Shown here one piece after another: positions 39,404 to 64,000 of a DNA stretch of 64,000 bases (its first letter is position 1; each line of letters begins with the position of its first letter). The stretch is from Takakia lepidozioides. Taxonomy: Eukaryota > Plantae > Bryophyta. The notes under the pieces are model-generated. The model had not been told where the DNA came from and made no database searches. It was given only the letters and a program-made list of their open reading frames with translations. The stretch spans positions 62,000,001-62,064,000 of the forward strand of contig CM060732.1 in the NCBI GenBank assembly GCA_030704615.1, written 5' to 3'. Made by a program: the position numbers and the translations under genes.

Positions 39404-42400
39404 GACGGGTAGCTTATTGGCTGGCTCAGTTTCTAGTACCACCACCCGCTCCAAATTATGAGAAACTCATCTTCGAGTTCAACTCGATGACTCAACATGC
39501 CTGGGAGGTGCAAGAAAGTGTGCTTAAAACCATTCTGCGGCGCAATGCCCACACAGAGTACTTGGGACGGTTCAAGCAAGGGCCAGACAGACTCAATGTC
39601 TACTGACTGGTTCAAAGAGTGCGTGCCCCTCCTAACGCATGCGGACATAGAGCAGGATATCCAGCGAGTTGCTGATGGTGATATGTCGCCCATTCTTTGT
39701 GCTGATCCTATCATCAGGTTCGGATCAAGTTGCCCAAAACATTATCCTACAATTGCACGTACTAAATTATCAAATTTCACTGCCAGCAGCTAAGTTACAT
39801 GTCGGATTATTTGGTTGGCGGCTGGCTGCAGCTCAGGAACTTCTGGTGGCAAGCCAAAGCTGATTCCATCGACCAGCACGACCGCTCAACTTGCAATTGA
39901 CTCTACCTGGTTCAGTGCTGCGTTCAGAAACCAGTACATTCTACTAAAACCTCCATGTTTGAATACAGACTTCCCCAGTACGACGAAAGAGAACCTTGAC
40001 TATCGAGTTTAAAATTTTCTGAAGATTCATCTGCACTAGACTCGCGTTGCCTCCGCGCAGACTTTAATAGCTGTTGCATGCGCTTTCTTGCCCATCTCTG
40101 GGTCCCCCCTACCACTACCTGCACCCCACCCGACCTATCCGCTCACTCTGCACCAGCTGCTCTCACACTTTGTGTTACCTGGACCCTGCACCCATAGATT
40201 GTACTCATGAGACGTTGTTTGCCGTAGCCTTGTGGCCATTGACCCCGCGCCCAGTTTGAGCGGGAACAAAAGGGACAGAACCTACCTCTGTCGGGGGCTG
40301 ACGTTGGTAGTAAGACTTACCTCCATATATAGAATTCTCTAGAAATCCCTTCACACAAGCATCAATCTGCTGTGTGTGATTTGCCCAAAAACTAGGCCTC
40401 AGGAGGGCCTGGGCTTTTGGCTCAGCCTCGAGACTTTCAAAGTTGGTAAACAGGGGTACAGGCACAATTCCCTTAATAGATTTGAAGAGAGCGTCTCTTT
40501 GGCGAGAGAACCCCGGACAGTGTATCAGAAAATGAATACTGTCTTCAGATTGCCCACACAACGGGCAATTGCACTCTCCCTTTCCTCTCTGCTTCTGTTT
40601 GCTGTTCAAAGGTAGACTTCCTGCCCTGAGTTTAAATTTCAGTCTAGTGCCGAGAGTGGGTAGACCCTAGAGGTCATCCAAGATGTCCTCCCCCACGTCA
40701 CAGACTGGAAACAAGTTCTTCTGCCTAACTTCATTTTCATCAGACAATCTCATGGCAACAGACATGGCTGAGGACCCTACAGCCTCTAAGTCAGATTTAT
40801 CCAGCAGGGTCAAGACTTGCGGATCCAGGTCCAGGTCCTTGAGGATCTCTTCTACTCTCTTCTGCCAGGACTTAGCCTGTTTGACAGGGCGGTCCTGTTT
40901 CCAAGATATAGAGTCGATTAACTTAGGATATCTGGTGTTGGGCATATGTTGCAGCTGACCCCACCATCTGACCTTGAATTCATCTCGTCGGGAGCTTAAG
41001 GACGGAATGCCAAACTCACCCCGAACAGCCACATTAGCTGTTTTGGAGCAAAGTGTAGGAAGGGAGGACGGGGATCTCTTGGCTACCCCACTGCCACTTA
41101 AGATCACTTTCTCCCTCTCCTCTGTCGTTGAATGCTACCACTGCACATTTGCTGACATTAGCCTCTAGCCCCCAAAGATCAAAGTATCTCTTCGCGCAAT
41201 CAATCAACTCCTGGAGATTGGTTGGAGTCTCCCCTATGCCTGCGAAGTCATCCGCAAACATAAGGGCTGGTATGGTGGTATCACCCACCCTTAACCCAAA
41301 TCCCTCACTTTCCACATCCTCGAGGAGTTGATTGATGAGAACATTGAAGAGCATAGGGGAGAGAGTACATCCTTGAGCTACACCTTGGTCTATGTCAAAG
41401 AAGTTGGACTTCTGTCCGTTAACAGTGACACAGCTTTTGGTGCGAGCATACAAGTTGTGGACAACTCTCCACATCTTTCCCTTGATCCCACAAGACCAGA
41501 GGCGGAACCATAGGCCATCTCTCCACACTGTGTCATAAGCCTTTTTGACATCCAGGAAAAAGACATAAGTGGGTAAACCCTAGAGAACTTAGATGGGGAA
41601 TGGTCAGAAATAGAGAGGAGCCAATGGCGGTCTCGCTTATTTAGTAATTACTTCAGTGGGCTCTACAATACGCGAACATTTTAAGGAGGTTAGGATGTAT
41701 ACGATACATATTTGTTCGTACATGAAATCCGGGAGTGAACAGTAGGGATGAGTTCTGTGGTGTAAGTTATAAGGATCCATACTAAGTGTATGGAGGGCTA
41801 TGGGATTAGCGAGTGGGAAGGACTAGATCGACTGTGCCTGCAGCTTTCCGATGCGATCCAATGGAAAGAGCTTGGCTTTTGTGCACACTGGAAAGGTATA
41901 TGAGACCAAAAGTGGTGTGAAGGCGGCTTGCACAACTGCCAACTACTTCTGGAGCGATGCCTTTCGACATCGGAAGCAGGCCAGACTGCCGCCAGCGAAT
42001 TTCGTGAGTCCCGATGAAATCATTTTCGGGACTGACTCTGTCCAATCCATGTATTGTCATTTGCTTTGTGCGTTGCTACGATCAGACGAAGTGGACTTCC
42101 TCACTTCCCTATTCCCGTTCAGTATAATTGAAGGCTTCAAGATGCTTGAACAAAGATGGGAGGAGATCTGTCAAGACATTCAGAGTGGAACTCTGAGCTC
42201 ATGGATCACTGAGCCGGCGATGAGAACTGCTGTCGCACTCCTTGACAGGGTAAGTGAAATAAGGACAACCTTATTGGGTCTTGAATCCAACTAGCATATG
42301 AGACCTGTGCGTGAATATTTTCTCTAGTACTCGAGCAAAGATGAAGTTTTGCATGTTTGTAAGGAGAGTGAATAATGTACCATAGTCAAGCATGTCTACA

Positions 42401-43856
42401 GTCTTAGAATTCAGTCATACGAATCAAAATCTAGTTACAAATTCTTTTGCAATTCATATTTGTCTCTTTATAAGCACGGACCCTCTCCCGACTCTATAAG
42501 TCAGATCACTGCTGCATATGATGATGTCAATGGTTATCTTTGCAGCCCGATCCAAAGACAGCTGAGGATCTGCGGAAGAAATGTGCAAACAAGTCATGGG
42601 GTGGGATTGTGGAACGCCTTTGGCCAAATGTGCAATACATAGTGTGTTACAACAGGTCCTATGGCAGCCTATGTGCCTCACCTAAAACAGTACGCCGGAA
42701 ATGTGCCCCTTGTTTGTGGAGAGTATGGAGCTTCGGAGTGCGCTTGGTTAGGAATCAACTTAAACCCCCATGCTCCATCGAAGGACGTGTCGTTTACAAT
42801 CCTGCCAAATCTTGCATTCTTTGAATTCATTCCACATGGTACGCATAACCATAGAGTCGAGGGTCGCAAGTCAACTTCAATTTCTGAATGGAAGCAGCAA
42901 CCTGCTGTCCAGACTGTGGGGCTCTCAGAGCTACAAGTTGGTCAAGAATACGAAATAGTCCTAACAAACTCTGCAGGTATGGACATGGATTGCTCAATCT
43001 CACCAGTGCTCAGCTGTGCGACACTGCTGAAATCAGTTTGTGTAGGCTTGGTTTTCGTACTTGCTTATAGTGAGAACTGTCTATGTACTTTGATTGGAAG
43101 AGAAATTTTTGGCTCTATCTCTAAAGTCTATCTCTAGAAAAAAGATCAAGTTTCGTTTATATATGTGATGATGGGGTAGAACAGCTTGTTCGTTGATCAC
43201 ATCGGTACCGTATCATGAACTTCACGAGTTTATTTCGTTCAGGACTTTCTCGATATCGACTAGGAGATGTTGTCAAGATCACAGGCTTCTACAACACATC
43301 TCCGCAATTTGCCTACGTTTCACGAAAAAATGGACTGCTCTGTCTTTGCAACGATAGCACCGATGAGAAAGAGCTTCTCTTTGTTGTTAAAAAGGCTGCT
43401 CAATTACTCGAGGAGGCTGCGCCGAGCCTGGAACTTGAGGAATTCACAAGCTATGCTGACCACTCCTCAGTTCCTGGGGGACAATATGATCTTTCTAGGA
43501 TGTTGCAGAGGTGCAGTTCACTGATGGACACCTCCTTTGGATACTACTACATGCAAGGCAGAGTTAGTGGGTTGATTGGAAATGTAGAGCTGTGTGTTGT
43601 GAAGAGCGGTACATTTCGCAGGATGGCTGACCATGCTATGAGCTTTGGAGCATCGGCGCTTCAGTACAAGACTCCTGCAATCATCAACTCTCCCAAACTA
43701 CTTGGTATTCTTAGAGAGGGCGTTATTCAAACATTGCACAGCTCCGAATATCCAGAGACTAAATGGTCGTCTTGGACATTCAAGGATCCCTCATGGGTGA
43801 GTCCACTCTTCATACCTATAGTGCTGTCATCACCTAATTACAAATACCCCTGTTAA
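39404..43856 (+). pseudogene. GH3: GH3 acyl-acid amido synthetase, probable pseudogene (or mis-assembled gene)
   Basis: GH3 motifs: VQESVLKTILRRNAHTEYL, FKECVPL..DIQRVADGDMSPIL, SGTSGGKPKLIP, SPDEIIF..QSMYCHLLCAL, YGASE, GLSRYRLGDVV, QYKTP. Lesions: frameshifts near 39595 and 42645, a damaged donor near 39729, loss of the HYVxFWE segment after SVPG, and a LINE in one intron. Confidence 0.85.
40205..41580 (-). mobile_element. 5'-truncated non-LTR retrotransposon (RTE/RTEX-like RT plus C-terminal CCHC) in a GH3 intron
   Basis: FLDVKKAYDTVWRDGL, QGVAQGCTLSPMLFN, LMFADD, ANVSKC, then CPLCGQSEDSIHFLIHCP. Frameshifted. Confidence 0.88.
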
Positions 43857-44900
43857 AGGATAAGTAGAAAAGGAGGGGAAGGACAGGCAGATGAGAGGGA
43901 AAAGTGGGGCTTGATGAGTTGGACAGGTGGGCCTGGGCTGGGGGGACAGGGGGGACACCTGAAAGAGGGGGGAGACAATGTTCAATTTATGAAAGGTAAA
44001 AAATAGGCATACCATTGGAACAGCCAATGGTGGGCTCAGATTAGAGTTTTTTTGGGGGGTGCAATTACTAGACACGTGTCAAATAGTGGGGGCGTTTATG
44101 GAGGGTAAGACACCTGGGGAATCTTCTGGAAGACTCCACCACCGCCTACTACTTATACAATATATTATATATATATATAAGTAAGTCGTTTCATGATTTT
44201 AACACCTGTATATATATATTTTCTCAAAATTATAAAAGACCCTAATGTAAATATATAAAATTACGTTACAAAATAAATTAATCCTTTTTGTATACAGTAT
44301 ATGATTTATATTTTTGAATTATTAAAAATACCGTTATATATGTATATTGTGATTAGAATAGGGCAGGGATGGAGATGGGACGAGGGCAAAATCTATAGCG
44401 GAAGAAAAAAGATAAGTTAGTAGGAGACGAGATTGATGGCGAGGGTCATGAGAGATTTTTATTTTGCAAAAGATTTTTCAATCAAAGCCACAACGTGGAG
44501 CTTGTTAATCAGAATCCTTATTATTATACTTCCCATTCAAGGTGGACCAAGAGTGGCAGTCATTGACCTAACAAATTTTTAAAAATAATCCTCGAAAATA
44601 GAGAAACAAAGTCTCACAATGCATTTTTCATGTGAATGAATGTGGAATATCTCCGCAGAAATAGGTGTATAACTGCGGTATTTGGCCCTTCATCTTCCAC
44701 GGTTGCATCCTGGGCTGGGCTAGCAAGCTCACGCATGCAGGCTCACACACTCAGGGCAGGCTCACCCTCTAGCATTCCAAGTGAGTTTATGGTGTATTTT
44801 GGTATGTACAGTCTTGCTTTCATCTTGCTCAGAATAGCCTACTATTGAAACAACCATGTTCTAGGTACCACATGCTGGAGCTGATGCAGTTTCAAATAAG

Positions 44901-46205
44901 AGCTGAGGTACTCACGGACCAAGGGAGAGAGTTATTGGGGGAGTTTCAGGCTTTGTGTGATAAAGCCTTGATAGACCACCGCACCACTTCTCGGGATCAT
45001 CCTGAGGCCGATGGCTTGGCAGAGAGAGTTGTTCAGACGGTGAAGAGGGGTTTGCGCAAGTATGGCTTGTAGAAGGGACACCTAGGAGATTGGGATCTTC
45101 AGGTTCCTTGGTTAGCCATGGGCTACAGGTTCAGCAAACAAGCATCACTTGCCTCCTTCTCACCATATTCCTTCTCTTTGGCCGAGAGCTGGATTTGTCT
45201 GCAGCCATTCGTATGGACACTGCTCAAGTCCTTAACCTTGACTATCAGGACATGTGGGTACGTGTATGTGATCAGCGTGCAGAGATGTTCAAGAAAGTCA
45301 TGCCCATGGCTTTTGAGAACATTGTCATTGCACCGTGATACGTTGAGGTATGCCACTATACGTGGTGGAGGATATCTTCCTGGGGTTCGGAGGTTTAGCC
45401 CCGGTAACTATGTTTATTTGCAGCAGACTGCTCCTACGACTCTGGATGTTACTGCAGGGCGTGTTATTCTGAGGGTTCGAGAGGTGTTGCCCTCAGGGGT
45501 CCTGATCTTGGAGGGTCGGGATGGCATGACTTGGAAGGACCATGTGCGTAATTGTGCGCCATGTCACCTTCCCAATGTCAATGGCAGAGTTGACCCAAAC
45601 TTGGCAGTGGTACCTGCAGGTTTGAGGTGCATGCTCTGTGGGTCTGCCAAAGGGGCAGCCACCATGCTAGTGTGTGATCGATGCTCAAGGGGTTGGCATA
45701 TGGGATGCTTGAAACCACCTCTTGATAAGGTTCCTGACGGAGATTGGTTGTGTCCACACTGCTTGGGATAGTGGCAGTGGACATGACTGGAGGCAGCTAA
45801 CAAGACATGGGAGGCCAAGCTCATAGAAGTCAATACATGAGATCCCAAGCTCAAGTTCACAGGTTGCAAGACGGCGACTAACGATGGGGCAACTCTTGCA
45901 CCCGGCCTCTTGATCTATCGAGTTTGAGTGTAATAGGGATAGTGGTGGAGGACTTAGTGAGGCTATGGTCACTATCACATCTTGTGGCTACCTGGATTTA
46001 GAGGGACCTAAGCACGCTAGGGGGGCGATTGTGTGGACTAGTGACTGCCATAGTGGGCAGCATAGTGGCAGCCTAGTGACTGACTAGTTGTAGCCTAGTG
46101 GTTGGACTAGTTGTGGACTAGTGGTGGACTAGTGTGTGGTGTGCACATGTGTTGTGTGGTTTTGGACAGCGATGTAATTGTGTAGCGATATGTATGCGCA
46201 CGACA
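44901..46205 (+). mobile_element. 5'-truncated copy of the DNMT-Gypsy element (integrase C-terminal half, PHD, PPT, 3' LTR)
   Basis: High identity to 57100-58412. Premature TAG at ~45070 and indels. PHD CMLC..CDRC..WHMGC..WLCPHC, PPT AGGGGGGCGA at 46019-46028, LTR at 46030-46205. Confidence 0.95.
46030..46205 (+). repeat. LTR (176 bp, TG...CA)
   Basis: Follows the PPT. Ends match 58236-58412 and 58743-58919 exactly, with different flanks. Confidence 0.9.
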
Positions 46206-46209
46206 AATA

Positions 46210-46490
46210 TCTGCGACTACCAGCATGAGGGTGGTCGCAGCAGTTTTTTTAAAAAAATAACATGCGACTTCCTCGCACCCAATTTTTTTTTTTTTTAAAT
46301 GTGCGACCACCCTCTGCTTGTGGTCGCACCTATTAAAAAAATTGAAAATGCTACGACCACCACCTGCTGGTGGTCGCACCCATTTAAAAAATAAGAAAAA
46401 AATGTGCGACCGCCCCCATCTGGTGGTCGCACCTATTTTTTATTTTTATTTTTAAATTGTCCGACCAACCGTTGCTGACGGTCGCATGAT
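46210..46490. repeat. Array of direct and inverted TGCGACCAC/GTGGTCGCA motifs (CACTA-like subterminal repeats)
   Basis: About 10 motif copies in both orientations separated by A/T tracts. No terminal CACTA seen. Confidence 0.55.
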
Positions 46491-50490: not shown

Positions 50491-50682
50491 GCATGTGGTC
50501 TGGAAGGCCGAATTTTGAAGCTCGTGGAGGGCGGTTTGAGGAGTATCTTCATGATATTCCCATGGTCATGCAAGTTCAGGTGTAGGCTATGTTAGGAACT
50601 TAGTATTCCAAACCATAAGCCGCAACAGGTTCTCTACCCGGTTACCTTGTGGAGAGGGGGTTAGGGGCATGTTCATGACCGG

Positions 50683-53600
50683 TTGAGTGTCAACACGGAG
50701 GTGCCACTAGTTGCTGGGGACAGTGCCGGTTCGAGCACTAGCGATACTAGTGGGTACACGAGACGAGGTGTGCGGTTTAGGCCACCTTCACCTCCTGTGT
50801 CTTCCACGGAAGGTTCTGATTCGGATTGTGAATCAGGAGGGCTCATACCGGCGGTGCAAGTTGTTTCTTTGCCATTGTTGTGGGACACAATGGAGGAGAT
50901 GTATGGAGCTACCAAGGGGCCACGAAGGTACTCTGGGGCGGTGGGCACCATTGAGTTGGATGATTTTATCCAAGAGTTTGATAGTTGGTGTGATCTGCAG
51001 CAAATGCGCAATCCACAACTATTTACGCCGTTCATGGCATGGAAAGGGCTGTTTCAGCACCTTGAGGGGCCGCCTATGGATGATTACCATGAGTTCAGGC
51101 GGGGGCATGAGGTTGAGATCGAGGAGTGGAGGATGTACTGGTCACCCGACTATGTCTCCATCACTAGGGGCACTAGAGCCACGAGGGCAGTGGCTACACC
51201 TGCCGCTGCACCGGCAGCTTTAGCAAGTAGCAGTGGGACTGGTGGTACAGTAGCTACGACATCCACCCAAGCCACTACCGCACCAGCACTAGCACCCGTG
51301 CCTGCCTTCAACCCTGTTGTGGAGTTCTTCGAAGAGTTGAGAGGGAACTACCAAGGGGTGAGGACAGAGAAGTTGCGGAGCTTGCAAGAGTTCCAACGGA
51401 AGCCGACCGAGAGCTTGAGGGAGGCTTTCACTCACATGAGGCGCTTGATAAATGTAACCCAAGGGGTTACGGAAGCTCAGGCAGTCCAATTCTGGTATGG
51501 GATATTGGACAAGGAGCTGAGGAGAAGGGTGCGGGATGCAATTCTCCTACAAGCGGCCCAACCCACCTTAGCAAATGTGTTTGTGCTGGCAGAGCGGATA
51601 GAGCTCAACATGGTGGAGGAACGAGTGGTCATGGTGGGATTTGCTAAGGAGACACCACGGGGTAGTGGTGCTCCTAGCCAACCACTACCTCAACGTGCTC
51701 AAGGCAACAAGGGGGCTCAGGTGAAGCTCAGGGAAGGGCAGAGAGGACCTCAGATGCAGGGGTCTCTCCCTTCATTTGCTGGCCAACAACGGGCGGATGT
51801 GGTGTGTTGGACATGTGGAGGACCCCATGTCAAGAAGGATTGCCCAGAGGGAGGCAAAGGGTCGGCACATGCACAGCCTGCACAGTTGCAGTGTGGGCAT
51901 TGTGGCAAGCACGGGCATGGAGAGGCCCAGTGTTATAGTTTGCATCCTGAGTTGCGCCCAGGCCAGTTCCAAGGGAACAATGGTGGCCGGGGGCGAGGTG
52001 GAGCAGCCCAGAGAGGACGAGGTGGCCAGCCACGAGGTGCAGGCCAAGGGCAAGCTCAACGTGGCCAAGGACGCGGAGGTCAGGGTGTTGACCAAGGCAT
52101 GGCCAACCGGCTTCAGCAGCTAGAGCAGAGGCTCGCTACCATGGCTACAGCTCAGGTGGTACCGGCTCTAAGGCCGGATGGTCCACCTCCTGCTCCTGAG
52201 GGAGGAGATATGGGAGGCATGGGATTCATGTGTGGAGCAGCACTACCACTAGTGCAGGTGGAGTCTGCTGCAGCCGTGACTCGAGGAGCAGCACGAGTTC
52301 CTGAGCCACGAGGTGCAGAGGTGGAGTTGGATCCACAGCGTGGGGAGGCAAGCCGTCAGGCTAGGCTTCCTCAGTCATTCACATTGGCGGAGACAGTGTC
52401 GACGCCATCCATGGCACCTAGTTCTCGCCCGACTATTACTATGCCATTGGGGAGAGCTACACGGGCAGCACCACTACCTAGTGTTGCCAAGGCTACGGCA
52501 GCTAGTGTGCTGTTAGGAGCGGCCACATCTGTGTGCCAGGCTCCATTGTTCTCGGCTACCATGATTGCGATGCCGGGGATAAGACCAGCTGAGGTGTTCA
52601 GGCTGGCAGCTACACTCTGTGAGAGTGGGGAGGTTACTTCATCTTCTGCGGAGATAGTGGGAGGTGTAGTGCCGGAGGGATCCTCGGATTTGAGGGCCAA
52701 GACTGCCACGGCGGCGCCATGGCAAGCTGCAGCTGCCAGGTTGATGGAGCTGCCAGCTAGGCCAGCCATTGAGCACGCCATGGTGACACCCGGAGTTGTC
52801 ATGTTAGACAACCAGGATGGCATTTTCTGTTTGAGTGGACCGGCAGGCAAGAGGTACCGGCCACTGCGAGTCTTGTTGGACTCGGGAGCTCAGCCACTGA
52901 TGCTGGGCAGAGCTGCTATTGCAGGTTTGGGCCTCACGGAGGCGGATATGGAGCCTTGTCCTTTCCAGATACAGACGTCTCTGGGAAGATCGGAGCAGGC
53001 TCGGGGCATGACACGGCATGAGTTGGCTATCAGACTACGGCCGGATCACCCTACAGATGGCTCAGTGATGCGAGCCAAGGCCATTGTGACAGACGCAGTC
53101 TCATACGATGTCCTGGTTGGTGGGGCAGTGTTGTACCCCATGGGCTTCACCCTGGATTTTTGGGAGGAGTCAGCTTCCTATAGGCCTGCATGGCAGTCAG
53201 GGGAGGGCCGGCGTGTGCAGCTCCCTGTGACGTTCATAGGAGGAGTTGCGGTTGCCCAGCGAGGCAAGATGCCGACACTAGCAGCATTCACAGCGGCAGT
53301 GAGTTGGCCTAGAGAGTTGCTTGAGGGCAATGCTCATTCAGAGGATGTACCACCTCCGGGAGAGCAGGATGACATGTATGGTATGGCGGAGTTGCCTACC
53401 ATGGTTGCTCAGACTCCATTGTGGGGCACGAGCAAGGATTTGCAGCGGGATGCTGATCGACGGGTGCGACAAGCCTGGGTGGAGGCTTTTGTACCGTCAG
53501 GAGAGGAGGAGAGTGTGGGGATTGCACCAGGACCACCTCAATTGTCTCCATTGGACACCACACCTATTGTGTGGCAGTCTCCGGATGAAGGCATTTGTCT

Positions 53601-54840
53601 TCTGGACTTGTTTGGCGGGATCAGCACCGGATTGGCTGCTGTGTTACAGGCAGGTGTACGAGTTTGGCGTTACCTGTATGTGGAGAGGGATGAGACTGCA
53701 CAACGCGTTTCACTTCGCCATGTTGCTCAGTTGGTGCAGCGGTACCCTGAGTTGTTGTCGGTGTCTGCAATTCGTGGATATCAGCAAGCCTTGCCAGCAG
53801 ACATTTCGTTGCTGGGGGCGCAGGATTTGGAGCGGGTTGGCTCCATTGATCTGGTAGTGGCAGGTTGGCCCTGCCAAGGGCATTCATCAGCCGGGCATGG
53901 CAATGGATTGCGAGACTCGAGGTCGGGTCTGTTTTGGGAGATGGTGCGGGTTTTGCGCCACTTGCAGCTTCATCAAGCTGTATCTCCAGCATACATCTTG
54001 GAGAATGTGCCACTGATGGGCGATTCTCAGGCCAGGGTGATGGCCAGTGTGCATCAAGTCCGGTCGTGGCTTGGGTCAGTAGTGTTGCTAGATGCAGCTA
54101 CAGTGGGGTCACGGGCTCATCGTCCACGGCTATGGTGGACTAACATGATGCCACCCGCACTGCTCAAGCGTGCATTTGATGGGGTGCAGCGGCCAGCACA
54201 GCTCACAGTGGATAACATTCTGGACACAGGGAGGCAGTCTCAACGTGTGAGACACGATGACCGTTCGCCTTTGGCAGTGGTCAACAAGGTGGGTCAACCA
54301 CGAGCAGCATTACCTACACTGCTCAGCTTCCCAGGATCGCATGCTTTACGGGATAGTGGACCTGGCCTCCTGTGGGATGCTCAGTTGCAGCAGTTAGTGG
54401 AGCCTAATGCTGACGAGCGTGAGCGGGCAATGGGTTTTACCACTGGTACCACGGCGGTGTCGTCTCTTTCTGAGGCATCACGTCGTCAATTGTTGGGGCA
54501 AGCAATGGATCTCAATTGCTTGACCTGGATTATCAGCTTGGCTCTAGCTGAGCAACGCAGAGTGCGGAATACACTTCCCTCAATGGTCTCTCTGCCTACC
54601 GAGACGGTACAGGCAGTGAGTGGGGGCGAGCATATGAGGACCACGGGGTGCATGCATCCATGGCACATGTGGGAGGTGCTCGAGGTTCAGAGGGAGTTGG
54701 CAGCCAAGGCGGCTGTGATGGATGAGGTTGGGGATTCTTCTCGAGTTGAGGAGGTCCTCAAGGATGAGATGATGGGGCAGGATGATGCCTTGTCATTGAC
54801 TGAGCAGGTAGGGAGTACTGCTCAAGAGGTTGCAGCATAG
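50683..54840 (+). CDS. gag-pro: ORF1: Gag (capsid, two zinc knuckles, RGG region) - aspartic protease - DNMT3-like cytosine-5 methyltransferase
   Basis: QRKPTESLREAFTHMRRL (Gag homology region), CWTCGGPHVKKDC and CGHCGKHGHGEAQC (51805-51935), VLLDSGA (52879) with YDVLVG (protease), MTase motifs at 53593-54510. First AUG is at 50890. Confidence 0.93.
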   Translation: MSVNTEVPLVAGDSAGSSTSDTSGYTRRGVRFRPPSPPVSSTEGSDSDCESGGLIPAVQVVSLPLLWDTMEEMYGATKGPRRYSGAVGTIELDDFIQEFDSWCDLQQMRNPQLFTPFMAWKGLFQHLEGPPMDDYHEFRRGHEVEIEEWRMYWSPDYVSITRGTRATRAVATPAAAPAALASSSGTGGTVATTSTQATTAPALAPVPAFNPVVEFFEELRGNYQGVRTEKLRSLQEFQRKPTESLREAFTHMRRLINVTQGVTEAQAVQFWYGILDKELRRRVRDAILLQAAQPTLANVFVLAERIELNMVEERVVMVGFAKETPRGSGAPSQPLPQRAQGNKGAQVKLREGQRGPQMQGSLPSFAGQQRADVVCWTCGGPHVKKDCPEGGKGSAHAQPAQLQCGHCGKHGHGEAQCYSLHPELRPGQFQGNNGGRGRGGAAQRGRGGQPRGAGQGQAQRGQGRGGQGVDQGMANRLQQLEQRLATMATAQVVPALRPDGPPPAPEGGDMGGMGFMCGAALPLVQVESAAAVTRGAARVPEPRGAEVELDPQRGEASRQARLPQSFTLAETVSTPSMAPSSRPTITMPLGRATRAAPLPSVAKATAASVLLGAATSVCQAPLFSATMIAMPGIRPAEVFRLAATLCESGEVTSSSAEIVGGVVPEGSSDLRAKTATAAPWQAAAARLMELPARPAIEHAMVTPGVVMLDNQDGIFCLSGPAGKRYRPLRVLLDSGAQPLMLGRAAIAGLGLTEADMEPCPFQIQTSLGRSEQARGMTRHELAIRLRPDHPTDGSVMRAKAIVTDAVSYDVLVGGAVLYPMGFTLDFWEESASYRPAWQSGEGRRVQLPVTFIGGVAVAQRGKMPTLAAFTAAVSWPRELLEGNAHSEDVPPPGEQDDMYGMAELPTMVAQTPLWGTSKDLQRDADRRVRQAWVEAFVPSGEEESVGIAPGPPQLSPLDTTPIVWQSPDEGICLLDLFGGISTGLAAVLQAGVRVWRYLYVERDETAQRVSLRHVAQLVQRYPELLSVSAIRGYQQALPADISLLGAQDLERVGSIDLVVAGWPCQGHSSAGHGNGLRDSRSGLFWEMVRVLRHLQLHQAVSPAYILENVPLMGDSQARVMASVHQVRSWLGSVVLLDAATVGSRAHRPRLWWTNMMPPALLKRAFDGVQRPAQLTVDNILDTGRQSQRVRHDDRSPLAVVNKVGQPRAALPTLLSFPGSHALRDSGPGLLWDAQLQQLVEPNADERERAMGFTTGTTAVSSLSEASRRQLLGQAMDLNCLTWIISLALAEQRRVRNTLPSMVSLPTETVQAVSGGEHMRTTGCMHPWHMWEVLEVQRELAAKAAVMDEVGDSSRVEEVLKDEMMGQDDALSLTEQVGSTAQEVAA
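53593..54510 (+). other. C5 cytosine DNA methyltransferase domain within ORF1
   Basis: Motif I LLDLFGGISTG; II YLYVERD; III PADI; IV DLVVAGWPCQGHS (catalytic PC at 53869-53874); V DSRSGLFWE; VI YILENV (54001); VIII DAATVGSRAHRPRLWWTN; IX ERERAMGF..GTT; X RRQLLGQAM. Confidence 0.93.
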
Positions 54841-54846
54841 CAACCA
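54838..54846 (+). promoter_or_regulatory. Candidate stop-codon readthrough signal UAG-CAA-CCA (CARYYA)
   Basis: Single stop between ORF1 and an in-frame open pol. Same context in copy 2 at 63716-63724. Confidence 0.8.
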
Positions 54847-57800
54847 CGGGACGCGTCCTCTACCTCTAAGCCCACTGGACTTAAGGTTGTAGTTACGGAG
54901 GACAATTGGGAGCCTGACATTGGACCCATTGTCACCGGAGGAGAGAAACGACGTATACGGCGGTTCCTAAGGGCTTACAGGAATTGCTTTGCCTTCAGTT
55001 TGAAGGACTTGGGAGCATTGAAGGGTCAAGAGATCCGTATTGAGTTGGCCACTGACACGCCAATCTTTCGGAGACCCTATAGATACAGTGACATGGAGAG
55101 GTCTTTGATTCAGATGAGGACTCAAGATCTCTGGGAGGCAGGTTTGGTGGAGCTCTCTGGTGGAGAGTATGCTTCAGCCACAGTGATGCCAGCCAAGAAG
55201 GATGTCTATGGCAATTGGACGGAGAGACGTATGTGCGGTGATTACTGGCCTGTAAATCGTCAGACCAAGTCCGATAAGTATGCCATGCCAACACCAGAGG
55301 AGATCTTTGATGCCATCGGGCATGCTAAGGCCTTTAGCACTTTGGATTTACGATCCGGATATCACCAGTTGCCAATCAAGGAGGCGGACAAGCAGAAGAC
55401 GGCATTCTGGGGGATCAATGAGCACGGCAAGGATTGCCTATATCAGTGGCGGTTCTTACCATTTGGGCTTAAGAATGCTCCTGCAGAGTTTCAGAGAGTC
55501 ATGGATAGGATTCTAGCAGGGGTGGACTTTGCTCGGTGCTACATAGATGACATCATCATCTTTAGTGTTACAATGGAGGAGCATGAGAGACACCTTCAGG
55601 TGGTATTGGAGCGCTTGAGAGCGCACGGATTGAAGTTGCATCCGGGGAAGTGCAAGTTTTTCCACAACCAGATTGAGTATCTGGGTCACATGATATATTC
55701 TGGAGGATTGGGGGTACAGCAGACTAAGGTAGAGGCCATTGCACAAATTCCACGCCCCACGGATGTGAGCCGAGTTCGAGCTTTCATGGGGTTGGCAAAC
55801 TATTATAGACGGTTTGTCAAGGGATTTAGTACCATTGCAAAGGCTCTAACCAAGCTGACCAAGGTGGACCAGGAGTGGCAATGGGAAGATGAGCAGGAAC
55901 GAGCTTTTCAAGAGCTCAAGGCGAGGTTGACCTCGGCGCCTATCTTGAGACGACCTATCAGGGGGCGTCCCTTTCAGCTGCATACGGATTGGAGCATGCT
56001 GGGGCTTGGAGCGGTGCTCACACAGGTGGATGATGAGGGAAGAGAGTTCGTAGTGGCTTACGCTAGCCGCTCGAACAACGCTGCAGAGGCTAAGTACAGC
56101 TCATATGAGGGAGAGTGCTTAGCTGCAGTGTGGGCCATGGCACACTTCAGGTGCTATCTATACGGCAATCTTTTCACCCTTGTCACGGATCACCAGCCAC
56201 TCAAGTGGTTGATGGAGTCAGACAAGCTTACGGGGAAGCTTGCACGGTGGGCACTTATACTCCAGGAGTATGACTTTCAGGTTGTGCATCGACCGGGTTT
56301 GGTCAATCGGGATGCGGATGGATTGAGTCGCAATCCATGCATGAGCCAGCAGGATGACACTGGAGCTCGGTGGCATGGTGAGACGGACGAGGAGATGGTG
56401 CCGGGATGGCACGCATCTGCATTTTTGTGTATCTTGGCATCGGGAGGTCAGATTGGACCTACAACAGGGATGACTGTAGACGGAGTGTCTGAGGACCCTG
56501 AGGCTAGTGATGAGCTAGGTGGTGCCAGAGATATACATGAGGATTCGGCTGTGTTGGACTACCTCCGCACGGGAGACACGGCAGCCATTGTGACTGCCAG
56601 GGAGAGGGATCGGATCCTACAACGAGCCAAGAGGTTCAAGTGGGAGGGGATACACCTACTTCGAGTGTGGGAGGGTGGTCGGGTGAGGATTGTGCCTCAC
56701 CCCACACAGCGTGCACGGTTAGTGCGGCATGCCCATGAGGAGTTGGGGCATTTTGGAGTGCGACGCACTCACAGTTTACTGCAGGGGCAGTATTGGTGGC
56801 GTGGTATGCATACAGAGGTGCAACAGTTTGTGGCTAGGTGCATGGTGTGTGACAGGGTGCGTGCTTCGTTTAACGCCCCTACACCACAGTTGCATCCTTT
56901 ACCTATCATGGGATTGGGCTACAGATGGAGTCTTGACTTCGCAGGACCGTTGCCACTGACTATGCGCCACCACAGATATGTGTTGGTGATGGTGGAGCAC
57001 TTCTCCAAGTGGATTGAGTTGGTTCCATTGCCTGACAAGGCTAGTGAGGGGGCTGCGTATGCATTCTTGGATCGTGTGCTTAGCCGATTTGGTGCTCCAG
57101 CTGAGGTACTCACGGACCAAGGGAGAGAGTTCTTGGGGGAGTTTCAGGTTTTGTGTGATAAAGCCTTGATAGACCACCGCACCACTTCTCGGGATCATCC
57201 TGAGGCCGATGGCTTAGCAGAGAGAGTTGTTCAAACGGTGAAGAGGGGTTTGCGCAAGTATGGCTTGCAGAAGGGACACCTAGGAGATTGGGATCTTCAG
57301 GTTCCTTGGTTAGCCATGGGCTACAGGTTCAGCAAACAAGCATCACTTGCCTCCTTCTCACCATATTTCCTTCTCTTTGGCCGAGAGCCGGATTTGCCTA
57401 CAGCCATTCGTAGGGACACTGCTCAAGTCCTTAACCTTGACGATCCGGACGTGTGGGTACGTGCATGTGATCAGCGTGCAGAGTTGTTCAAGAAAGTCAT
57501 GCCCATGGCTTTCGAGAACCTTGCCATTGCACAGCACCGTGATACGTTGAGGTATGCCACTATACGTGGTGGAGGATATCGTCCTGGGGTTCGGAGGTTT
57601 AGCCCTGGTGACTATGTTTATTTGCAGCAGACTGCTCCTACGACTCTGGATGTTACTGCAGGGCGTGTTATTCTGAGGGTTCGAGAGGTGTTGCCCTCAG
57701 GGGTCCTGATCTTAGAGGGTCGGGATGGCATGACTTGGAAAGACCATGTGCGTAATTGTGCGCCATGTCACCTTCCCAATGTCGATGGCAGAGTTGACCC

Positions 57801-57975
57801 AAACTTGGCAGTGGTACCTGCAGGTTTGAGGTGCATGCTCTGTGGGTCTGCCAAAGGGGCAGCCACCATGCTGGTGTGTGATTGGTGCTCAAGGGGTTGG
57901 CATATGGGATGCTTGACACCACCTCTTGAGAAGGTTCCTGACGGAGATTGGTTGTGTCCACACTGCTTGGGATAG
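54841..57975 (+). CDS. pol: ORF2 (Pol): reverse transcriptase - RNase H - integrase - PHD finger, in frame with ORF1
   Basis: No stop in 54841-54999. RT: LDLRSGYHQ, LPFGLKNAP, YIDD (55540). RNase H: TDWS, EGECLA, TDHQPL, DADGLSR. Integrase: HEELGH..CMVC, WSLDF, TDQG, GLAER. PHD C4HC3 at 57832-57966. Confidence 0.95.
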   Translation, partial: QPRDASSTSKPTGLKVVVTEDNWEPDIGPIVTGGEKRRIRRFLRAYRNCFAFSLKDLGALKGQEIRIELATDTPIFRRPYRYSDMERSLIQMRTQDLWEAGLVELSGGEYASATVMPAKKDVYGNWTERRMCGDYWPVNRQTKSDKYAMPTPEEIFDAIGHAKAFSTLDLRSGYHQLPIKEADKQKTAFWGINEHGKDCLYQWRFLPFGLKNAPAEFQRVMDRILAGVDFARCYIDDIIIFSVTMEEHERHLQVVLERLRAHGLKLHPGKCKFFHNQIEYLGHMIYSGGLGVQQTKVEAIAQIPRPTDVSRVRAFMGLANYYRRFVKGFSTIAKALTKLTKVDQEWQWEDEQERAFQELKARLTSAPILRRPIRGRPFQLHTDWSMLGLGAVLTQVDDEGREFVVAYASRSNNAAEAKYSSYEGECLAAVWAMAHFRCYLYGNLFTLVTDHQPLKWLMESDKLTGKLARWALILQEYDFQVVHRPGLVNRDADGLSRNPCMSQQDDTGARWHGETDEEMVPGWHASAFLCILASGGQIGPTTGMTVDGVSEDPEASDELGGARDIHEDSAVLDYLRTGDTAAIVTARERDRILQRAKRFKWEGIHLLRVWEGGRVRIVPHPTQRARLVRHAHEELGHFGVRRTHSLLQGQYWWRGMHTEVQQFVARCMVCDRVRASFNAPTPQLHPLPIMGLGYRWSLDFAGPLPLTMRHHRYVLVMVEHFSKWIELVPLPDKASEGAAYAFLDRVLSRFGAPAEVLTDQGREFLGEFQVLCDKALIDHRTTSRDHPEADGLAERVVQTVKRGLRKYGLQKGHLGDWDLQVPWLAMGYRFSKQASLASFSPYFLLFGREPDLPTAIRRDTAQVLNLDDPDVWVRACDQRAELFKKVMPMAFENLAIAQHRDTLRYATIRGGGYRPGVRRFSPGDYVYLQQTAPTTLDVTAGRVILRVREVLPSGVLILEGRDGMTWKDHVRNCAPCHLPNVDGRVDPNLAVVPAGLRCMLCGSAKGAATMLVCDWCSRGWHMGCLTPPLEKVPDGDWLCPHCLG

Positions 57976-58224: not shown

Positions 58225-58234
58225 AGGGGGGCGA
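58225..58234 (+). promoter_or_regulatory. Polypurine tract
   Basis: AGGGGGGCGA just before the TG of the 3' LTR. Same sequence at 46019-46028. Confidence 0.8.
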
Positions 58235-58235
58235 T

Positions 58236-58412
58236 TGTGTGGACTAGTGACTGCCATAGTGGGCAGCATAGTGGCAGCCTAGTGACTGACTAGTTGTAGC
58301 CTAGTGGTTGGACTAGTGGTGGACTAGTGGTATACTAATGTGTGGTGTGCACATGTGTTGTGTGGTTTTTGGACAGCGATGTAGTTGTGTAGCGATATGT
58401 ATGCGCACGACA
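58236..58412 (+). repeat. 3' LTR (177 bp, TGT...ACA)
   Basis: Follows the PPT. Built of GGACTAGTGG-like units. Three copies in the window share the same ends. Confidence 0.9.
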
Positions 58413-58742
58413 GCTGTCAAGTTATTTTACCACTAGTGTGAAACTAGCTAGGAAATAGCTAGCTTTCACATATTGACATTTGGGATTGGCCCAAGTGTCA
58501 ATCCAGGGGTCAAGGCAGATTTAGGCCCTGGAGTGGTTAGCTTCACGGCAAGCGCGGAAGGCTCATCTTTCTCGAGTTGAGCCTCACCGCGCCTAGCTAT
58601 GGCGCCGTAGTGTGGATTCCCCATGGCGTGGGGTGCACTTGGCTTGACTTGTATTTGAGTGATGAGGTTATATATGCATGAGTTTATGCTTCAGCTTTGT
58701 GAGCTCGCATGAGCTTGTGCTTGTATTCTTCTTCTTTATCAT

Positions 58743-58919
58743 TGTGTGGACTAGTGACTGCCATAGTGGGCAGCATAGTGGCAGCCCAGTGACTGACTAG
58801 TTGTAGCCTAGTGGTTGGACTAGTGGTGGACTAGTGGTATACTAGTGTGTGGTGTGCACATGTGTTGTGTGGTTTTTGGACAGCGATGTAGTTGTGTAGC
58901 GATATGTATGCGCACGACA
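58743..58919 (+). repeat. Additional LTR copy (solo LTR, or 5' LTR of copy 2)
   Basis: Two mismatches to 58236-58412. No PPT before it and no matching flanking TSD. Confidence 0.88.
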
Positions 58920-59475
58920 TACTTCTGCACAGGCGAGCAGGGGAGGAAATGCGAAGACTCATAGCAGGAGAAGCAATGCTGACGGATGAGGCCAGCGGGG
59001 CTCCAAGGGTTGATGGAGAGGCGGCGGAAGGAGGCTGCAGATTGAGTTCCACTTTACTGAGGCAATCGCAAATTTCTGTAGAGACTTGATAACTGTATGA
59101 TTGTCTCTCTTATACTGGAGCTGATGTAGATGGACCCAGGCCTTGGGTCTGCATGTTGAGCATGGTTCACTTTCTTTTTCCTGGCAGTGAAGTTGTCTGT
59201 GCCTTGTGGGGGTGGTGACGGGGCAATCTGGTGCCTGTTGTCGCCGATCCCTGACCTGTAAATTGCACACTGAAGAAACACGAGCAGTAACAGGAAGACG
59301 GAAACCATTGTAAGCCAACAATAATCGCTGGCGAGAGATGCGAATTAAACCAAGTTGATGGAACTTCAAGCTGGTCTTGGCCTTGGATTCCATGCAAAGA
59401 CGGCCACATTACAGCAGGCCGCCTGTCCATAAGCCATGAAGGTGCTGCGCAGTGCATCTGCTCTTGAAATCGCCC

Positions 59476-59586
59476 CAATTCCTGGTTTGTAGTCTCTAGG
59501 TCGAATAAGGCCTGGGCTACAGCCTCTTCAAACTCATCAGGCTCGAGCCCCTTCTCCTTCTGAATCTTCCTGCGTGCTGTAAACAT
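59476..59586 (-). pseudogene. RPS7: Processed fragment of 40S ribosomal protein S7 (eS7), N-terminal 37 codons
   Basis: [37 protein letters not shown] matches the plant eS7 N-terminus, continuous across the AQ/ALF junction. Similarity ends after NQEL. Confidence 0.8.
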
Positions 59587-61333
59587 GGCTGCTGCCTTGC
59601 CGTCCTGAAAGCTCGAGGAGGCAGGCCCACGCGCAGAGAAAAGCAAATCGCCTCCAGGGTGTGATACCCCACCCAACTGAGGTCGAGTTTTGGAGTTAAT
59701 GAGCTCTTGGTGCCTGGAGAAGCCTGGAAAAGAACGGCCTCGGGAACCCGTAGATAACCTGGGAACAGGTTGTAATTGCAAAAACGTTTTGGTGTTAAAA
59801 AAAAAAAGGGCCTTTTTGATCTAATTTAAATGCTTAAAGAGCCCGGTTGGTCATATCTTTGTCAAATGAGCTCCGTTTGACTTGGTTTTTGAGGGGATAG
59901 CTGCAGAAAGGGGAAATCTACCTATCTAGGTTTCTGTTTTTGGGACTCTGCTAAAAATCTATGGAATTTTTAGAGTGTGAGTGTGTCGTGAAAGATCCAC
60001 AATTCTGTTTCTAGAACCAATTCTGGTCTATTTGAGAGACAAATATGTGGATGTCCTCCTTGTATGGCTGAGGGAAATGAGGACGTAATTGAAGGGCAGG
60101 TCTCTTCTCTTAGCTTGTGCACACAAGGGGACAGGATTTATGTTTCCCAAGGAACTCAGACTGATTTGAGTGGAGAACAGTTGGACGAGTTGATTGCATA
60201 CTGGGAGTCAGGCATTAGCAGTAGACAACAGACTGCTGTAGTTGGCGTTGAGGGCCTTAATATCGCTTTGGGCAGTCAGAACTCTGTTGGAGCCAGCAGT
60301 TCTGCAGCTGTAAGTGAAATACCAAAGTGGGTGAAAAAGCTAGGCTTGGAACACAGCCAAAGACAGCCCCGGGGACCAAGGTGTTCAGCCACAAGGCTGT
60401 GGTGTACTGGAGCAGAGGAGCAGGAGCTACACAAGTTTGTGCAATCAGACAGCGTTGCAGCTGGACACGCTCTGCACAAGGCAACCAGGAGCGGGGGTTC
60501 ATTAGCGAGGACAAGTTTGTTCTGTTTGAAGGAGATGCAGTCATTCGCAATGAGGACACCCGCAACCGTCTCAAAGCTTTCGAGTTGAGAGACTATCAGA
60601 CCCTACCTTTGTTTTCTTTAGTGTTCAGTGAGCGGGAGATAGCAGAGTGTTGCTTTGTCTCTACCTGGCAGAAAGAGGAGGAGGGTTGGTTAGAGCGAGC
60701 TACTGTAGCTTGGGACAAGCTTAGTGGCAGGTTTCTGGACATAGATATACACCTTACCATCATGCAGAGCGAGGCACTTTCAGAGAAGTCTGGAAGTTGA
60801 TAGCATAGATCAGGATTAGATCTTGCTTGGGCGGGCTTCTATTCTTCCCCTCCATCTCTGTACTATTTTCATTACCTTGTACTTGTAGTTGCCAAAGCCT
60901 CTCTTGGTGGAGGCCAGTCAGTCCGGGGTTTTGGGCTGGGATATTCTGCAGGATCAGCATTGCAGCTGGATTTTGGTGTGGGGGTGTTGATGTTTTGATT
61001 TCTTGTGTTTGGATCCCCCCCCCCCCAACACCTGCATGCTTGACTGTGCGCCATGTTGGTTTTGTGTGGGCGCTTGCTTTCATAGGGATTAGACCGGATT
61101 TGATCACCGGTCAATCCTAGAGTATGCTATCGGTGGTGAGGCTGGAGTGATGACCAGCAAGACCACCAGTGTTTCTTCTATGGTGAGGCTGGGTTGATGA
61201 CCAGCCAACCATAGGAGTTCTTGCGGTGGATGCAGGTGCAGGTGCCCTGAGCCATTGGGATATGACCCTTAAACTGCAACAGGTGCCCACCCGTGTCACT
61301 ATTAGAATTAGTACTAGAGCCCTCTAGTGTCAC

Positions 61334-64000
61334 GTGGGGGAGGTGCACATTGTGAGTGTCATCACGGAGTTACCCAAGGGTTTTGAGGGGAGTACGGCTA
61401 CAGGCAGTAACAGTGAGAGTGGGTTCACAAGACGAGGTATTCGGTTCAGACCACCTTCACCGCCACCCTCAACTAGTGCAGAGTCAGACACAGACTCGGA
61501 GGCTTTATCAACAGGTGTGCAATTTCATTCGCCATTGTTGTGGGACGACATGGAGGAGATGTATGGAGCTACCAAGGGGCCTCGTAGGTACTCTGGAGCT
61601 GTGGACACAATCGAGTTGGATGACTTTATCCAGGAGTTCGACAGCTGGTGTGATTTGCAGCAGATGCGCAATCCACAGCTATTCACCCCATTCATGGCGT
61701 GGAAGGGACTGTTCCAGCATTTGGAAGGCCCGCCTATGGACGATTACCACGAGTTCAGGCGAGGACATGAAGCAGAGATTGAGGAGTGGAGGATGTATTG
61801 GTCACCTGACTACGTCTCCATTACTCGAGGCATGACGCGACCAGTAGCTGCATCAGTACCGATATCTCCCACTACCAGCACTAGTAGTGGAACAAGTAGT
61901 GCCAGTACTTCTGCAGGTGGTACCAGTTCAAAAGGTGCTACTACTCCTCCTGCCACGACTACAACACATGTGCCTAGATTCAACCCGGTGGTGGAGTTCT
62001 TCCAGGAGTTGCGGAGGAACTACCAAGGTGTACGGACAGAGAAGCTGCGAAGTTTGTAAGACTTCCAGCGCAAAACCCAGTGAGAGCTTGCGAGAGGCCT
62101 ACACTCATATGAGGCGCTTGATAAGTGTGACCCAGGGGTTACTGAAGCTCAGGCAATCCAGTTCTGGTATGGAATTTTGGACAAGGAGCTCAGGAGAAGG
62201 GTGCGGGATGCAACCTGTTACAAGCAGCCCAACCCACATTAGCAGATGTGTTTCTGCTGGCTGAGCGGATTGAGCTCAACATGGTGGAGGAGCGAGTTGT
62301 TACCATTGGGTTTGGCAAGACATGCCTGCACGAGGCGCAGCTGCCAGCCCACAGGCACAAGGGACTGCCCAACAGCGTGGTCAGGGGGGCCAGGTTTCCC
62401 AACCCAAGTTCCATGGAGCTTACAGGGGACCTCAGGTGCAGAGGCCCGTGGCATCTTTTGCAGGCCAACAGCAACCAGGGGTGATATGTTGGACATGTGG
62501 AGGACCCCATGTCAAGAGAGATTGCCCAGAGAGTGGCAAAAGGCCGGCACAAACACAGCCTGCACAGTTGCAGTGTGGGCATTGTGGCAAGTATGGGCAT
62601 GGAGCTGCCCAGTGTTATGACTTGCATCCTGAGTTGCGCCCATGCCAGTTCCAAGGGAACAATGGTGGACGGGGGCGAGGTGGACCAGCCCAGAGAGGCG
62701 CCAGATTTGGAGTAGGTTGGCTCCATTGATCTGGTAGTGGCAGGTTGGCCTTGCCAAGGGCATTCATCAGCCGGGCATGGCAATGGATTGCGAGACTCGA
62801 AGACAAGTCTGTTTTGGGAGATGGTGCGGATTTTGCGCCACTTGCAGCTTCATCAAGCTGTATCACCAGCATACATCTTGGAGAATGTGCCACTGATGGG
62901 CGATTCGTCGCCAGGGTGATGGCCAGTGTGCATCAAGTCCGGTCGTGGCTTGGGTCAGCAGTGCTGCTAGATGCAGCTGCAGTGGGATCACGGGCTCATC
63001 GTCCACGGCTATGGTGGATTAATTTGATGCCACCCGCACTGCTCAAGCGTGCATTTGATGGGGTGCAGCGGCCAATACACCTCATAGTGGACAGCATTTT
63101 GGACACAGGGAGGCAGTCTCAACGTGTGAGACACGATGACCGTTCGCCTTTGGCAGTGGTCAACAGGGTGGGTCAACCACGAGCAGCATTACCTACACTG
63201 CTCAGCTTCCCAGGATCCCATGCTTTCGGGATGGTGGACCTGGCCTTTTGTGGGATGCTCAGATGCAACAGTTAGTGGAGCCTAATGCCGACGAGCGAGA
63301 GCGGGCTATGGGGTTTTCCACTGGGACCGCGGCGGTGCCTTCTTTTTCTGAGGCATCACGTCGTCAGGTGTTGGGGCAAGCAATGGATCTCAATTGCTTG
63401 ACCTGGATTATCAGCTTGGCTATGGCTGAGCAACGTAGAGTGCGGAGTGCATTTCCCTTGACGGTCTCTCTGCCTACCGAGACGGTACAGGCAGCGAGTG
63501 TGGGCGAGCATATGAGGACCACGGGGTGTAGACATCCATGGCACACGTGGGAGGTACTCGAGGTTCAGAGGGAGTTGGCAGCCAAGGCAGCTGTGATGGA
63601 TGAGGTTGGGGATTCTTCTCGGGATGAGGAGGTTCTCAATGATGAGATGATGGGGTTAGGATGAGGCCTTGTCATTGACTGAGCAGGAAGGAGTACTGCT
63701 CAAGAGGTTGCAGCATAGCAACCACGAGACGCGTCCTCTACCTCTAAGCCCACTGGACTTAAGGTTGCAGTTACGGAGGACAATTGGGAGCCTGACATTG
63801 GACCCATTGTCACCGGAGGAGAGAGACAACGTATATGGCGGTTCCTGAGGGCTTATAGGAATTGCTTTGCCTTCAGTTTGAAAGACTTGGGAGCACTAAA
63901 GGGTCAAGAGATTCGCATTGAATTGGCCACTGACACGCCAATCTTTCGGAGACCCTATAGATATAGTGACATGGAGAGGTCCTTGATTCAGATGAGAACT
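61334..64000 (+). mobile_element. Second, degenerate DNMT-Gypsy copy (internally deleted; runs off the window end)
   Basis: gag homologous to 50683-52016 with TAA at 62057 and frameshifts. Joined at ~62698 to sequence matching 53819 onward. MTase motifs IV-X retained, UAG-CAA-CCA at 63716, then the start of RT. Confidence 0.93.

Follow-up and report, generated by a model that had tools for sequence, protein, structure and literature searches.

How does a Ty3/Gypsy retrotransposon that carries its own DNA methyltransferase reach its polymerase genes, if a stop codon stands between the two? This question is raised by an element in a stretch of 64,000 nt from the moss Takakia lepidozioides (assembly GCA_030704615.1, contig CM060732.1, positions 62,000,001 to 62,064,000 of the forward strand). 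The whole stretch is called the window in the following, positions are counted from its first letter, and all parts of the element lie on its forward strand. The element is intact and has the order Gag, protease, DNMT3-like methyltransferase (DNMT), TAG, CAA CCA, reverse transcriptase (RT), RNase H, integrase and PHD finger, which contains the Gag-protease-RT-RNase H-integrase order of the Ty3/Gypsy group. The stop after the DNMT is conserved and is a real feature that combines known parts in a new way. The TAG and the CAR-YYA hexamer behind it are, judging from the sequences, likely to form a programmed type I readthrough site, with Gag-protease-DNMT as the major product.

The junction in the window element and in a distant clade

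The first open reading frame, ORF1 (50665..54840; 1391 codons from stop to stop, first ATG at 50890), encodes two Gag Cys/His knuckles, an aspartic protease, the DNMT3-like C5 methyltransferase and a linker. It is ended by the TAG at 54838..54840, and the next six bases, CAA CCA (54841..54846), fit the consensus of the type I readthrough hexamer, CAR-YYA, as given in PMC2754532 and PMC11166343. A first-pass annotation of the window had read TAG CAA CCA as the end of ORF1, and this was indeed found at 54838-54846. It had also noted 53 open codons in frame behind the stop; the stretch is open, but its length is 1044 codons (ORF2, 54841..57975, in the same frame as ORF1), and its first ATG is codon 85 (55093). 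The TAG is the sole internal stop of a frame of 2437 codons, and the only other in-frame TAG of the element is ORF2's own terminator. When the stop triplets in all frames of the element were counted, CAR-YYA followed 1 of 223, and that one is the junction. Relatives were taken from metagenomes (the best 80 of 327 loci, from 41 of the 64 parts of the collection), and one more, L081, was added by a further search. In the 80 loci, CAR-YYA follows 50 of 26,469 stop triplets (0.19%); the hexamer after the junction stop exceeds chance.

Four distant elements, L043, L045, L046 and L081, all have TAG at the same junction. It is followed by CAG TTA in L043 and L046 and by CAA TCA in L045 and L081, and together with the window three spellings of CAR-YYA are found, which encode QL, QS and QP. 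Compared with the window element, L043 and L081 have an identity of 32-34% in ORF1 and of 68% in ORF2. When L043, L045 and L046 are anchored at the stop, they agree with the window at 16-20 of the 60 bases before it and at 15-19 of the 51 bases behind it, which puts their flanks near background. The junction TAG is again the sole internal stop in L043 (2418 codons) and L081 (2211 codons); L045 has one frameshift in ORF1, and L046 is partial and damaged. In L043 (1 of 347 stop triplets) and L045 (1 of 301), CAR-YYA follows a stop only at the junction. L081 (1-9188), an intact element of the clade, lies on a contig that is binned with a cyanobacterial genome but is likely a eukaryotic contamination; the stretch closes with a repeat of its first 30 bases, and ORF1 continues across the ends, as in a circular or collapsed assembly.

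The frame across the stop is likewise retained. The distance from the stop to a conserved Trp is 17, 23 or 24 codons, every one in frame. In L043 and L081 the first AUG of ORF2 is codon 117. Codons 1-84 of ORF2 are under coding constraint, with synonymous/non-synonymous differences (pS/pN) of 0.62/0.11 between L043 and L081 and 0.85/0.32 between the window and L081, and in the window, L043 and L081 the sequence 5′ of the first ORF2 AUG is conserved with relatives in which the two frames are fused. In summary, the sequence properties of type I sites were found together: a UAG stop, CAR-YYA directly 3′ of it in the window and in 4 of 4 distant elements, and an in-frame ORF that is constrained 5′ of its first AUG.

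The 10-nt palindrome GGACGCGTCC, which the first-pass annotation had noted behind the hexamer, is present at 54849..54858, but it is at chance level (the window has 89 perfect palindromes of 10 nt, 6 of them in the element) and unconserved. Its first base is altered in a second copy of the element in the window, it is missing from all other families, and it was excluded from the signal. Downstream of the stop, no shared RNA fold was detected in 7 elements (z from -1.5 to +1.3 for bases +10 to +69); only L043 reached z -3.0, in a longer segment. No tRNA genes were found in the window.

Conservation of the stop in other copies and families

Family S, which is of a peat-moss type, comprises 67 loci. 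The junction aligned in 50 of them, and 42 of these are distinct at 98.5%. In the DNMT tree, the Sphagnum fallax model P0029 falls within the family. A stop occupies the homologous codon in 41 of the 42 distinct copies (31 TAG, 10 TAA; the last has TAC), compared with only 8 of 40 in the second-commonest stop column. Together with the stop, hexamer and frame in the distant relatives, family S backs the claim of the first-pass annotation that a UAG-CAR-YYA site is conserved after the methyltransferase. All family-S copies examined are decayed. In 600 nt round the junction, G-to-A decay was 0.23 at TAG, 0.30 at CAG and 0.15-0.26 at CG, compared with 0.03 at TGG and ATG, as expected from methylation of CG, CHG and CWA. 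The TAA copies (10 of 42) correspond to the same rate as decay at other TAG sites, 0.23. Their use as a test against splicing was dropped, because this frequency fits ordinary TAG decay.

The second copy in the window (61337..64000) is decayed, internally deleted and runs off the window. It carries TAG CAA CCA at 63716-63724, and these nine identical bases had been taken to argue against random decay. The identity stands, but the argument does not: copy 2 is itself decayed, with two more in-frame stops at most 18 codons upstream of the junction, and the agreement is little proof because the two copies are 93.1% identical over 1308 nt, with 58% of all 9-nt segments matching anyway. This high background match ruled out copy 2 as independent evidence. 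Its Gag is joined to the middle of the DNMT at about 62697, and the copy looks chimeric, with a Gag part 76% and a DNMT-RT/junction part 93% identical to copy 1 and the deletion between them. A fragment of a third copy (44881..46214, 96.6% identical) covers the integrase C-terminus, the PHD finger and the 3′ region and does not include the junction.

Genomic copies were read from contigs of sequencing runs. In the DNA sequencing run X2 (organism A), 1639 contigs were aligned to 54750-54930, and no variant of at least 1% was found among them at 54836-54846, with many variants elsewhere. No variant was listed at these positions for contigs of organisms B and C either; C is less than 90% identical and differs at 54847. 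These contigs, together with the stop in nearly every family-S copy, rule out the possibility, raised by the first-pass annotation, that most young copies have a sense codon here. One contig of X2 is missing 54811-54847 (depth 57 versus about a million); it was read as a genomic deletion and not as splicing. From run X12, which is RNA only by guess, one contig of 2173 nt spans 54750-54930 unbroken, with no change listed at the stop; it could represent unspliced RNA or DNA and was not counted.

Relatives without the stop exist as well. In a third family of 10 loci, the stop between DNMT and RT is absent in 6; of the other four, 2 have damage in this part and 2 do not extend far enough. The fused proteins P0032, P0033 and P0104, which like this family belong to the nearest outgroups, run from DNMT to RT without a stop. 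An RT tree was calculated by a quick method with midpoint root from 19 chosen loci (matches below 170 residues, including L044, were dropped), and in this tree all 12 rows that have the stop fall on the same side of a branch whose approximate likelihood ratio support (SH-aLRT) is 98. The DNMT tree, from 73 of 105 sequences and with an incomplete careful tree search, agrees less firmly (90). No named sequence of Klebsormidium nitens was found by the protein searches. The simplest reading of these data appears to be that the stop was gained once, in a lineage whose outgroups have sense codons there.

At the protein level, the Marchantia models P0003, P0004, P0008, P0052, P0053, P0059 and P0060 and 13 metagenome proteins (P0005, P0015, P0017-P0026, P0028) terminate soon after the DNMT. 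The Marchantia and Sphagnum models that join ORF1 and ORF2 (P0006, P0010, P0011, P0014, P0029) were rejected as transcripts; conserved residues are dropped in them, and they are probably prediction artefacts. A search for longer fused forms, in which a blank is weak evidence, returned 4 proteins, in each of which the DNMT follows RNase H and precedes the integrase. A DNMT of the kind found in the window element has this second position, between RNase H and integrase, in a remoter Gypsy-PHD group (P0034-P0038, P0040, P0041, P0043-P0046, P0048-P0051); in P0047 the DNMT is upstream of the RT, and in P0042 Gag-protease-DNMT is followed by about 480 residues without an RT match. No relative of the element was found among viral contigs.

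Probable readthrough and its alternatives

With readthrough, most ribosomes would release Gag-protease-DNMT at the UAG and a minority would proceed into Pol; a near-cognate tRNA would decode the UAG with a frequency between a few and some tens of percent. The polyproteins would then be cleaved by the protease of the element. Methyltransferase and Gag would be produced at 1:1, and the enzyme would enter the particles at capsid-like numbers, where its likely substrate would be new cDNA. Protease release, packaging and cDNA methylation are suggested by general Gypsy biology and by a proposal in PMC5890265. Contexts of the tobacco mosaic virus type yielded 11-32% readthrough in a plant dual reporter, CAA CCA not being among the contexts described (PMC2754532), and UAG CAR YYA is described to work without downstream structure and across eukaryotes (PMC2754532, PMC11166343, PMC13517186).

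Several observations weigh against readthrough. In family S, 36 of 42 copies have CAA CCC, which departs from the consensus at its last base, and 40 of 42 have an ATG in frame two codons past the stop (ATG GC, for example L003 3243-3260); the hexamer is therefore not universal in the clade. An early ORF2 AUG is also present in L045 (codon 14) and L046 (codon 5). L043, L045 and L046 share 73-79% DNA identity with L081 over long stretches, and because of this kinship the full consensus is found in two lineages, not five. The invariance of the 11 nt in run X2 is unexceptional: 54815-24 and 54860-70 are likewise without listed variants, and the run thus shows no special constraint on the hexamer. 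The 15 bases before the TAG are 67-80% pyrimidine in L003, L054, L043, L046, L045 and L081, compared with 0.40 in the window, and five of the six relatives scored have a pyrimidine run there that resembles a splice acceptor. The case of Tca2 shows that a gag-stop-pol junction may be conserved and nevertheless fail in a reporter (PMC2194720). With regard to the products, the methyltransferase would fall below the 1:1 ratio if Gag were also made from an mRNA of its own, and the K. nitens enzyme was inactive in yeast, a result that its authors called inconclusive (PMC5890265).

The pyrimidine-rich stretch would suit partial splicing, in which an Ogre-like intron would remove the stop from a subset of transcripts, maybe with the stop's own AG as 3′ splice site, and the unspliced RNA would give Gag-protease-DNMT. 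Ogre offers a precedent at its GAG-PROT/RT boundary (PMC6317226), intact elements always use TAG, and five Marchantia ORF1 models end in E/Q-V-S-stop, which could, as far as the protein level tells, spell a donor-like AG/GT. Most of the family also carries T>C at 54890, which gives TTGCAG at 54887-54892. However, an acceptor at 54892 would require a phase-1 donor, and the best one nearby scores 4-5 of 9; a strong donor at a shared position was not found. The window lacks a pyrimidine run and has a rival CAG three bases 5′ of the stop. In all intact elements the two ORFs abut in frame, whereas the Ogre spacer averages 274 bp, and the candidate in-frame introns have 43-54% AU, compared with 59-63% in two gaps of the host GH3 gene. 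As CAR-YYA is not predicted by splicing either, this explanation is unlikely. The early ATGs point to another mechanism, the separate translation of ORF2 by termination-reinitiation, by internal or non-AUG initiation or from a subgenomic RNA. The stop would then be a true terminator, and RT-integrase would be packaged unfused to Gag. This would be in line with the ATG GC and the off-consensus hexamer of family S, with the AUGs of L045 and L046, with a weak promoter at the Tca2 junction (PMC2194720) and with the observation that the clade may start ORF1 at a non-AUG codon. But initiation at the first AUG would cost the window element, L043 and L081 84-116 codons, most of which are conserved with fused relatives. 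The spacer has three different lengths and yet always leaves ORF2 in frame with ORF1, an arrangement for which a separate start has no need, and CAR-YYA is again left unexplained. Separate initiation is thus an improbable explanation of the clade as a whole; it may still apply to family S alone, for which the sequences suggest a possible drift towards reinitiation.

It is very improbable that the TAG is an inherited nonsense mutation in dead copies, or a sense codon owing to a reassigned code or RNA editing. Copy 2 and the examined family-S copies are decayed, and fused relatives exist, as such an origin would lead one to expect. It is contradicted, however, because the stop is shared at the same junction by lineages with 32-34% ORF1 identity, in elements without other lesion, is fixed in a high-copy family, and TAG is never scattered in the frame as a sense codon would be. 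Under all three remaining mechanisms (readthrough, splicing and separate initiation) full-length RNA would yield mainly Gag-protease-DNMT, unless a Gag-only RNA exists, and the methyltransferase would therefore be made with Gag.

Element layout, known systems and implications

In ORF1, a motif scan located a Gag CCHC zinc knuckle at 51892..51933 (residues 410-423) and the active-site motif LDSGAQ of the aspartic protease at 52876..52893 (residue 738). A Pfam match for the protease was absent in the ORF1 protein of the window; the relatives P0030 and P0033 do match PF13975 / PF13650. The C5 cytosine methyltransferase (53575..54555; PF00145, E 1.7e-12) is unrearranged, its closest solved relative is DNMT3A (E 5.5e-12), and catalytic motifs including PCQ and ENV were found by motif scan. 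We take its motifs to be I, IV (PCQ), VI (ENV), VIII, IX and X. ORF2 includes RT (55255-55695), RNase H (55966-56271), integrase (56701-57201) and, at the integrase C-terminus, a PHD finger (57832-57966). The PHD finger is common to stop-bearing and fused relatives and may direct integration by histone state. The 3′ end (58234..58919) has a direct repeat of 179 nt (58234-58412 versus 58741-58919, 98.9% identical), which resembles the B..B pair of an A-coding-B-A-B layout; a 5′ A copy was not found within the window. In L054 (1865-2201 / 10499-11068) and L076 (1624-1915 / 10295-10948), split repeats A..B-A-B replace two ordinary long terminal repeats (LTRs). Among named sequences, the window element is closest to gene models from Marchantia polymorpha and Sphagnum fallax.

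The frame of ORF1 is open and conserved for about 60-65 codons 5′ of the first ATG (window 50686-50700, copy 2 near 61369, and family S). A candidate start, judged by context, is the ACG at 50695..50697, with A at -3 and G at +4, 65 codons 5′ of the first ATG. Both copies in the window retain GTC A(A/T)C ACG GAG, as do 8 listed rows of family S. The Marchantia models P0012 and P0031 have SVITEE at the position of the ACG, and the motif TR.G.R..PSP that follows agrees with the N-terminus of the L043 clade, where translation starts at an AUG. ORF1 of the clade may thus begin at a non-AUG codon, with this ACG as a candidate.

The surroundings contain host genes and further repeats. A GH3-family gene lies at 41827-43856 on the forward strand; on the reverse strand are a B3-domain gene (33120-34571), an OSCA/RSN1 channel exon (9922-10491), a separate RT fragment (41034-41579), an unannotated repetitive ORF of 569 codons (8128-9837) and, between the two element copies, a weak match to ribosomal S7e (59167-59820).

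The closest described system is KnitGypsy-Dnmt3 of K. nitens, a Gypsy element with the DNMT within the RT ORF (PMC5890265). It shares with the window element the Ty3/Gypsy type and an unrearranged DNMT3-like domain, and its DIRS-like split repeats recur here in L054 and L076. It differs in that TAG CAR-YYA parts DNMT from RT in the window, which leaves the DNMT with Gag and protease, and in that the window host is a land plant. Because the TAG at 54838 keeps the DNMT out of the RT ORF, the element was filed as a Gypsy-DNMT3 variant and not as a member of that family. A preprint of 2026 (bioRxiv 10.64898/2026.05.21.726589) mentions "streptophytes (Gypsy-DNMT3)", in a passage without readthrough or a stop codon. 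A stop or readthrough signal after a retrotransposon DNMT was not found reported in the literature, with subscription papers thinly covered, and the figures or main supplement of PMC5890265 may show the junction.

The junction shares with type I (tobamovirus) sites the UAG, the hexamer directly 3′, the in-frame polymerase ORF and the lack of a conserved downstream structure (PMC2754532, PMC11166343, PMC13517186). It differs in its place in a retrotransposon polyprotein and in the spelling CAA CCA. Two plant LTR retrotransposons, SIRE1 and RIRE2, reportedly use CARYYA as well, the stop in RIRE2 being said to lie between gag and pol. SIRE1 (a Ty1/copia Sirevirus) is described with pol-env stop suppression and RIRE2 (a rice Gypsy element) with candidate readthrough (PMC2829016, PMC2754532). 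Like the window element, both have ORFs split by one stop codon; in SIRE1 the stop is between pol and env, and neither has a protease plus accessory enzyme 5′ of the stop. The first-pass annotation had contrasted the site with the gag-protease boundary, where recoding would lie in most Gypsy elements. The position after the methyltransferase was confirmed, but among plant Gypsy elements there is already a known case of two ORFs that are divided behind the protease: Ogre has GAG-PROT, an intron and RT-RH-INT, with a spacer of about 274 bp spliced out and RT-RH-INT as minor product (PMC6317226). In contrast to Ogre, the window ORFs abut in frame without a spacer or a shared intron-like segment, and the methyltransferase precedes the boundary. 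An archaeal-type RNase H, a trait of Ogre/Tat, gave no Pfam match in a general domain scan, and no dedicated search was made. In gammaretroviruses, UAG readthrough between gag and pol fixes the Gag:Pol ratio (PMC13517186). These viruses differ from the element in that they need a pseudoknot and have the stop before the protease, and alpharetroviruses use frameshifting. Avian alpharetroviruses make the protease at Gag level.

What would the conserved stop mean for the element? De Mendoza et al. did not settle what retrotransposon DNMTs do, and they assigned the Gypsy enzyme to Pol, which is made in low abundance. The conservation of a stop behind the enzyme implies that in the stop-bearing clade the DNMT is wanted at Gag-like levels, whatever the way in which the stop is bypassed. 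A joint reading can be offered tentatively: a land-plant lineage would have gained a leaky stop that makes a captured DNMT3 a structural-level component of the particle, the particle would serve as a methylation chamber that pre-methylates cDNA before PHD-guided integration, ORF1 would be bracketed by an ACG start and UAG readthrough, and one family would have drifted away from readthrough in the direction of reinitiation. The single-codon junction, sister lineages with and without the stop, and copies in the tractable model Marchantia give an experimental handle for testing how the dose of the enzyme affects cDNA methylation, silencing and transposition. As of 2009, the verified plant type I cases were described as all viral and the Gypsy cases as candidates (PMC2754532); if true, readthrough at this junction would add a nuclear-encoded plant case.

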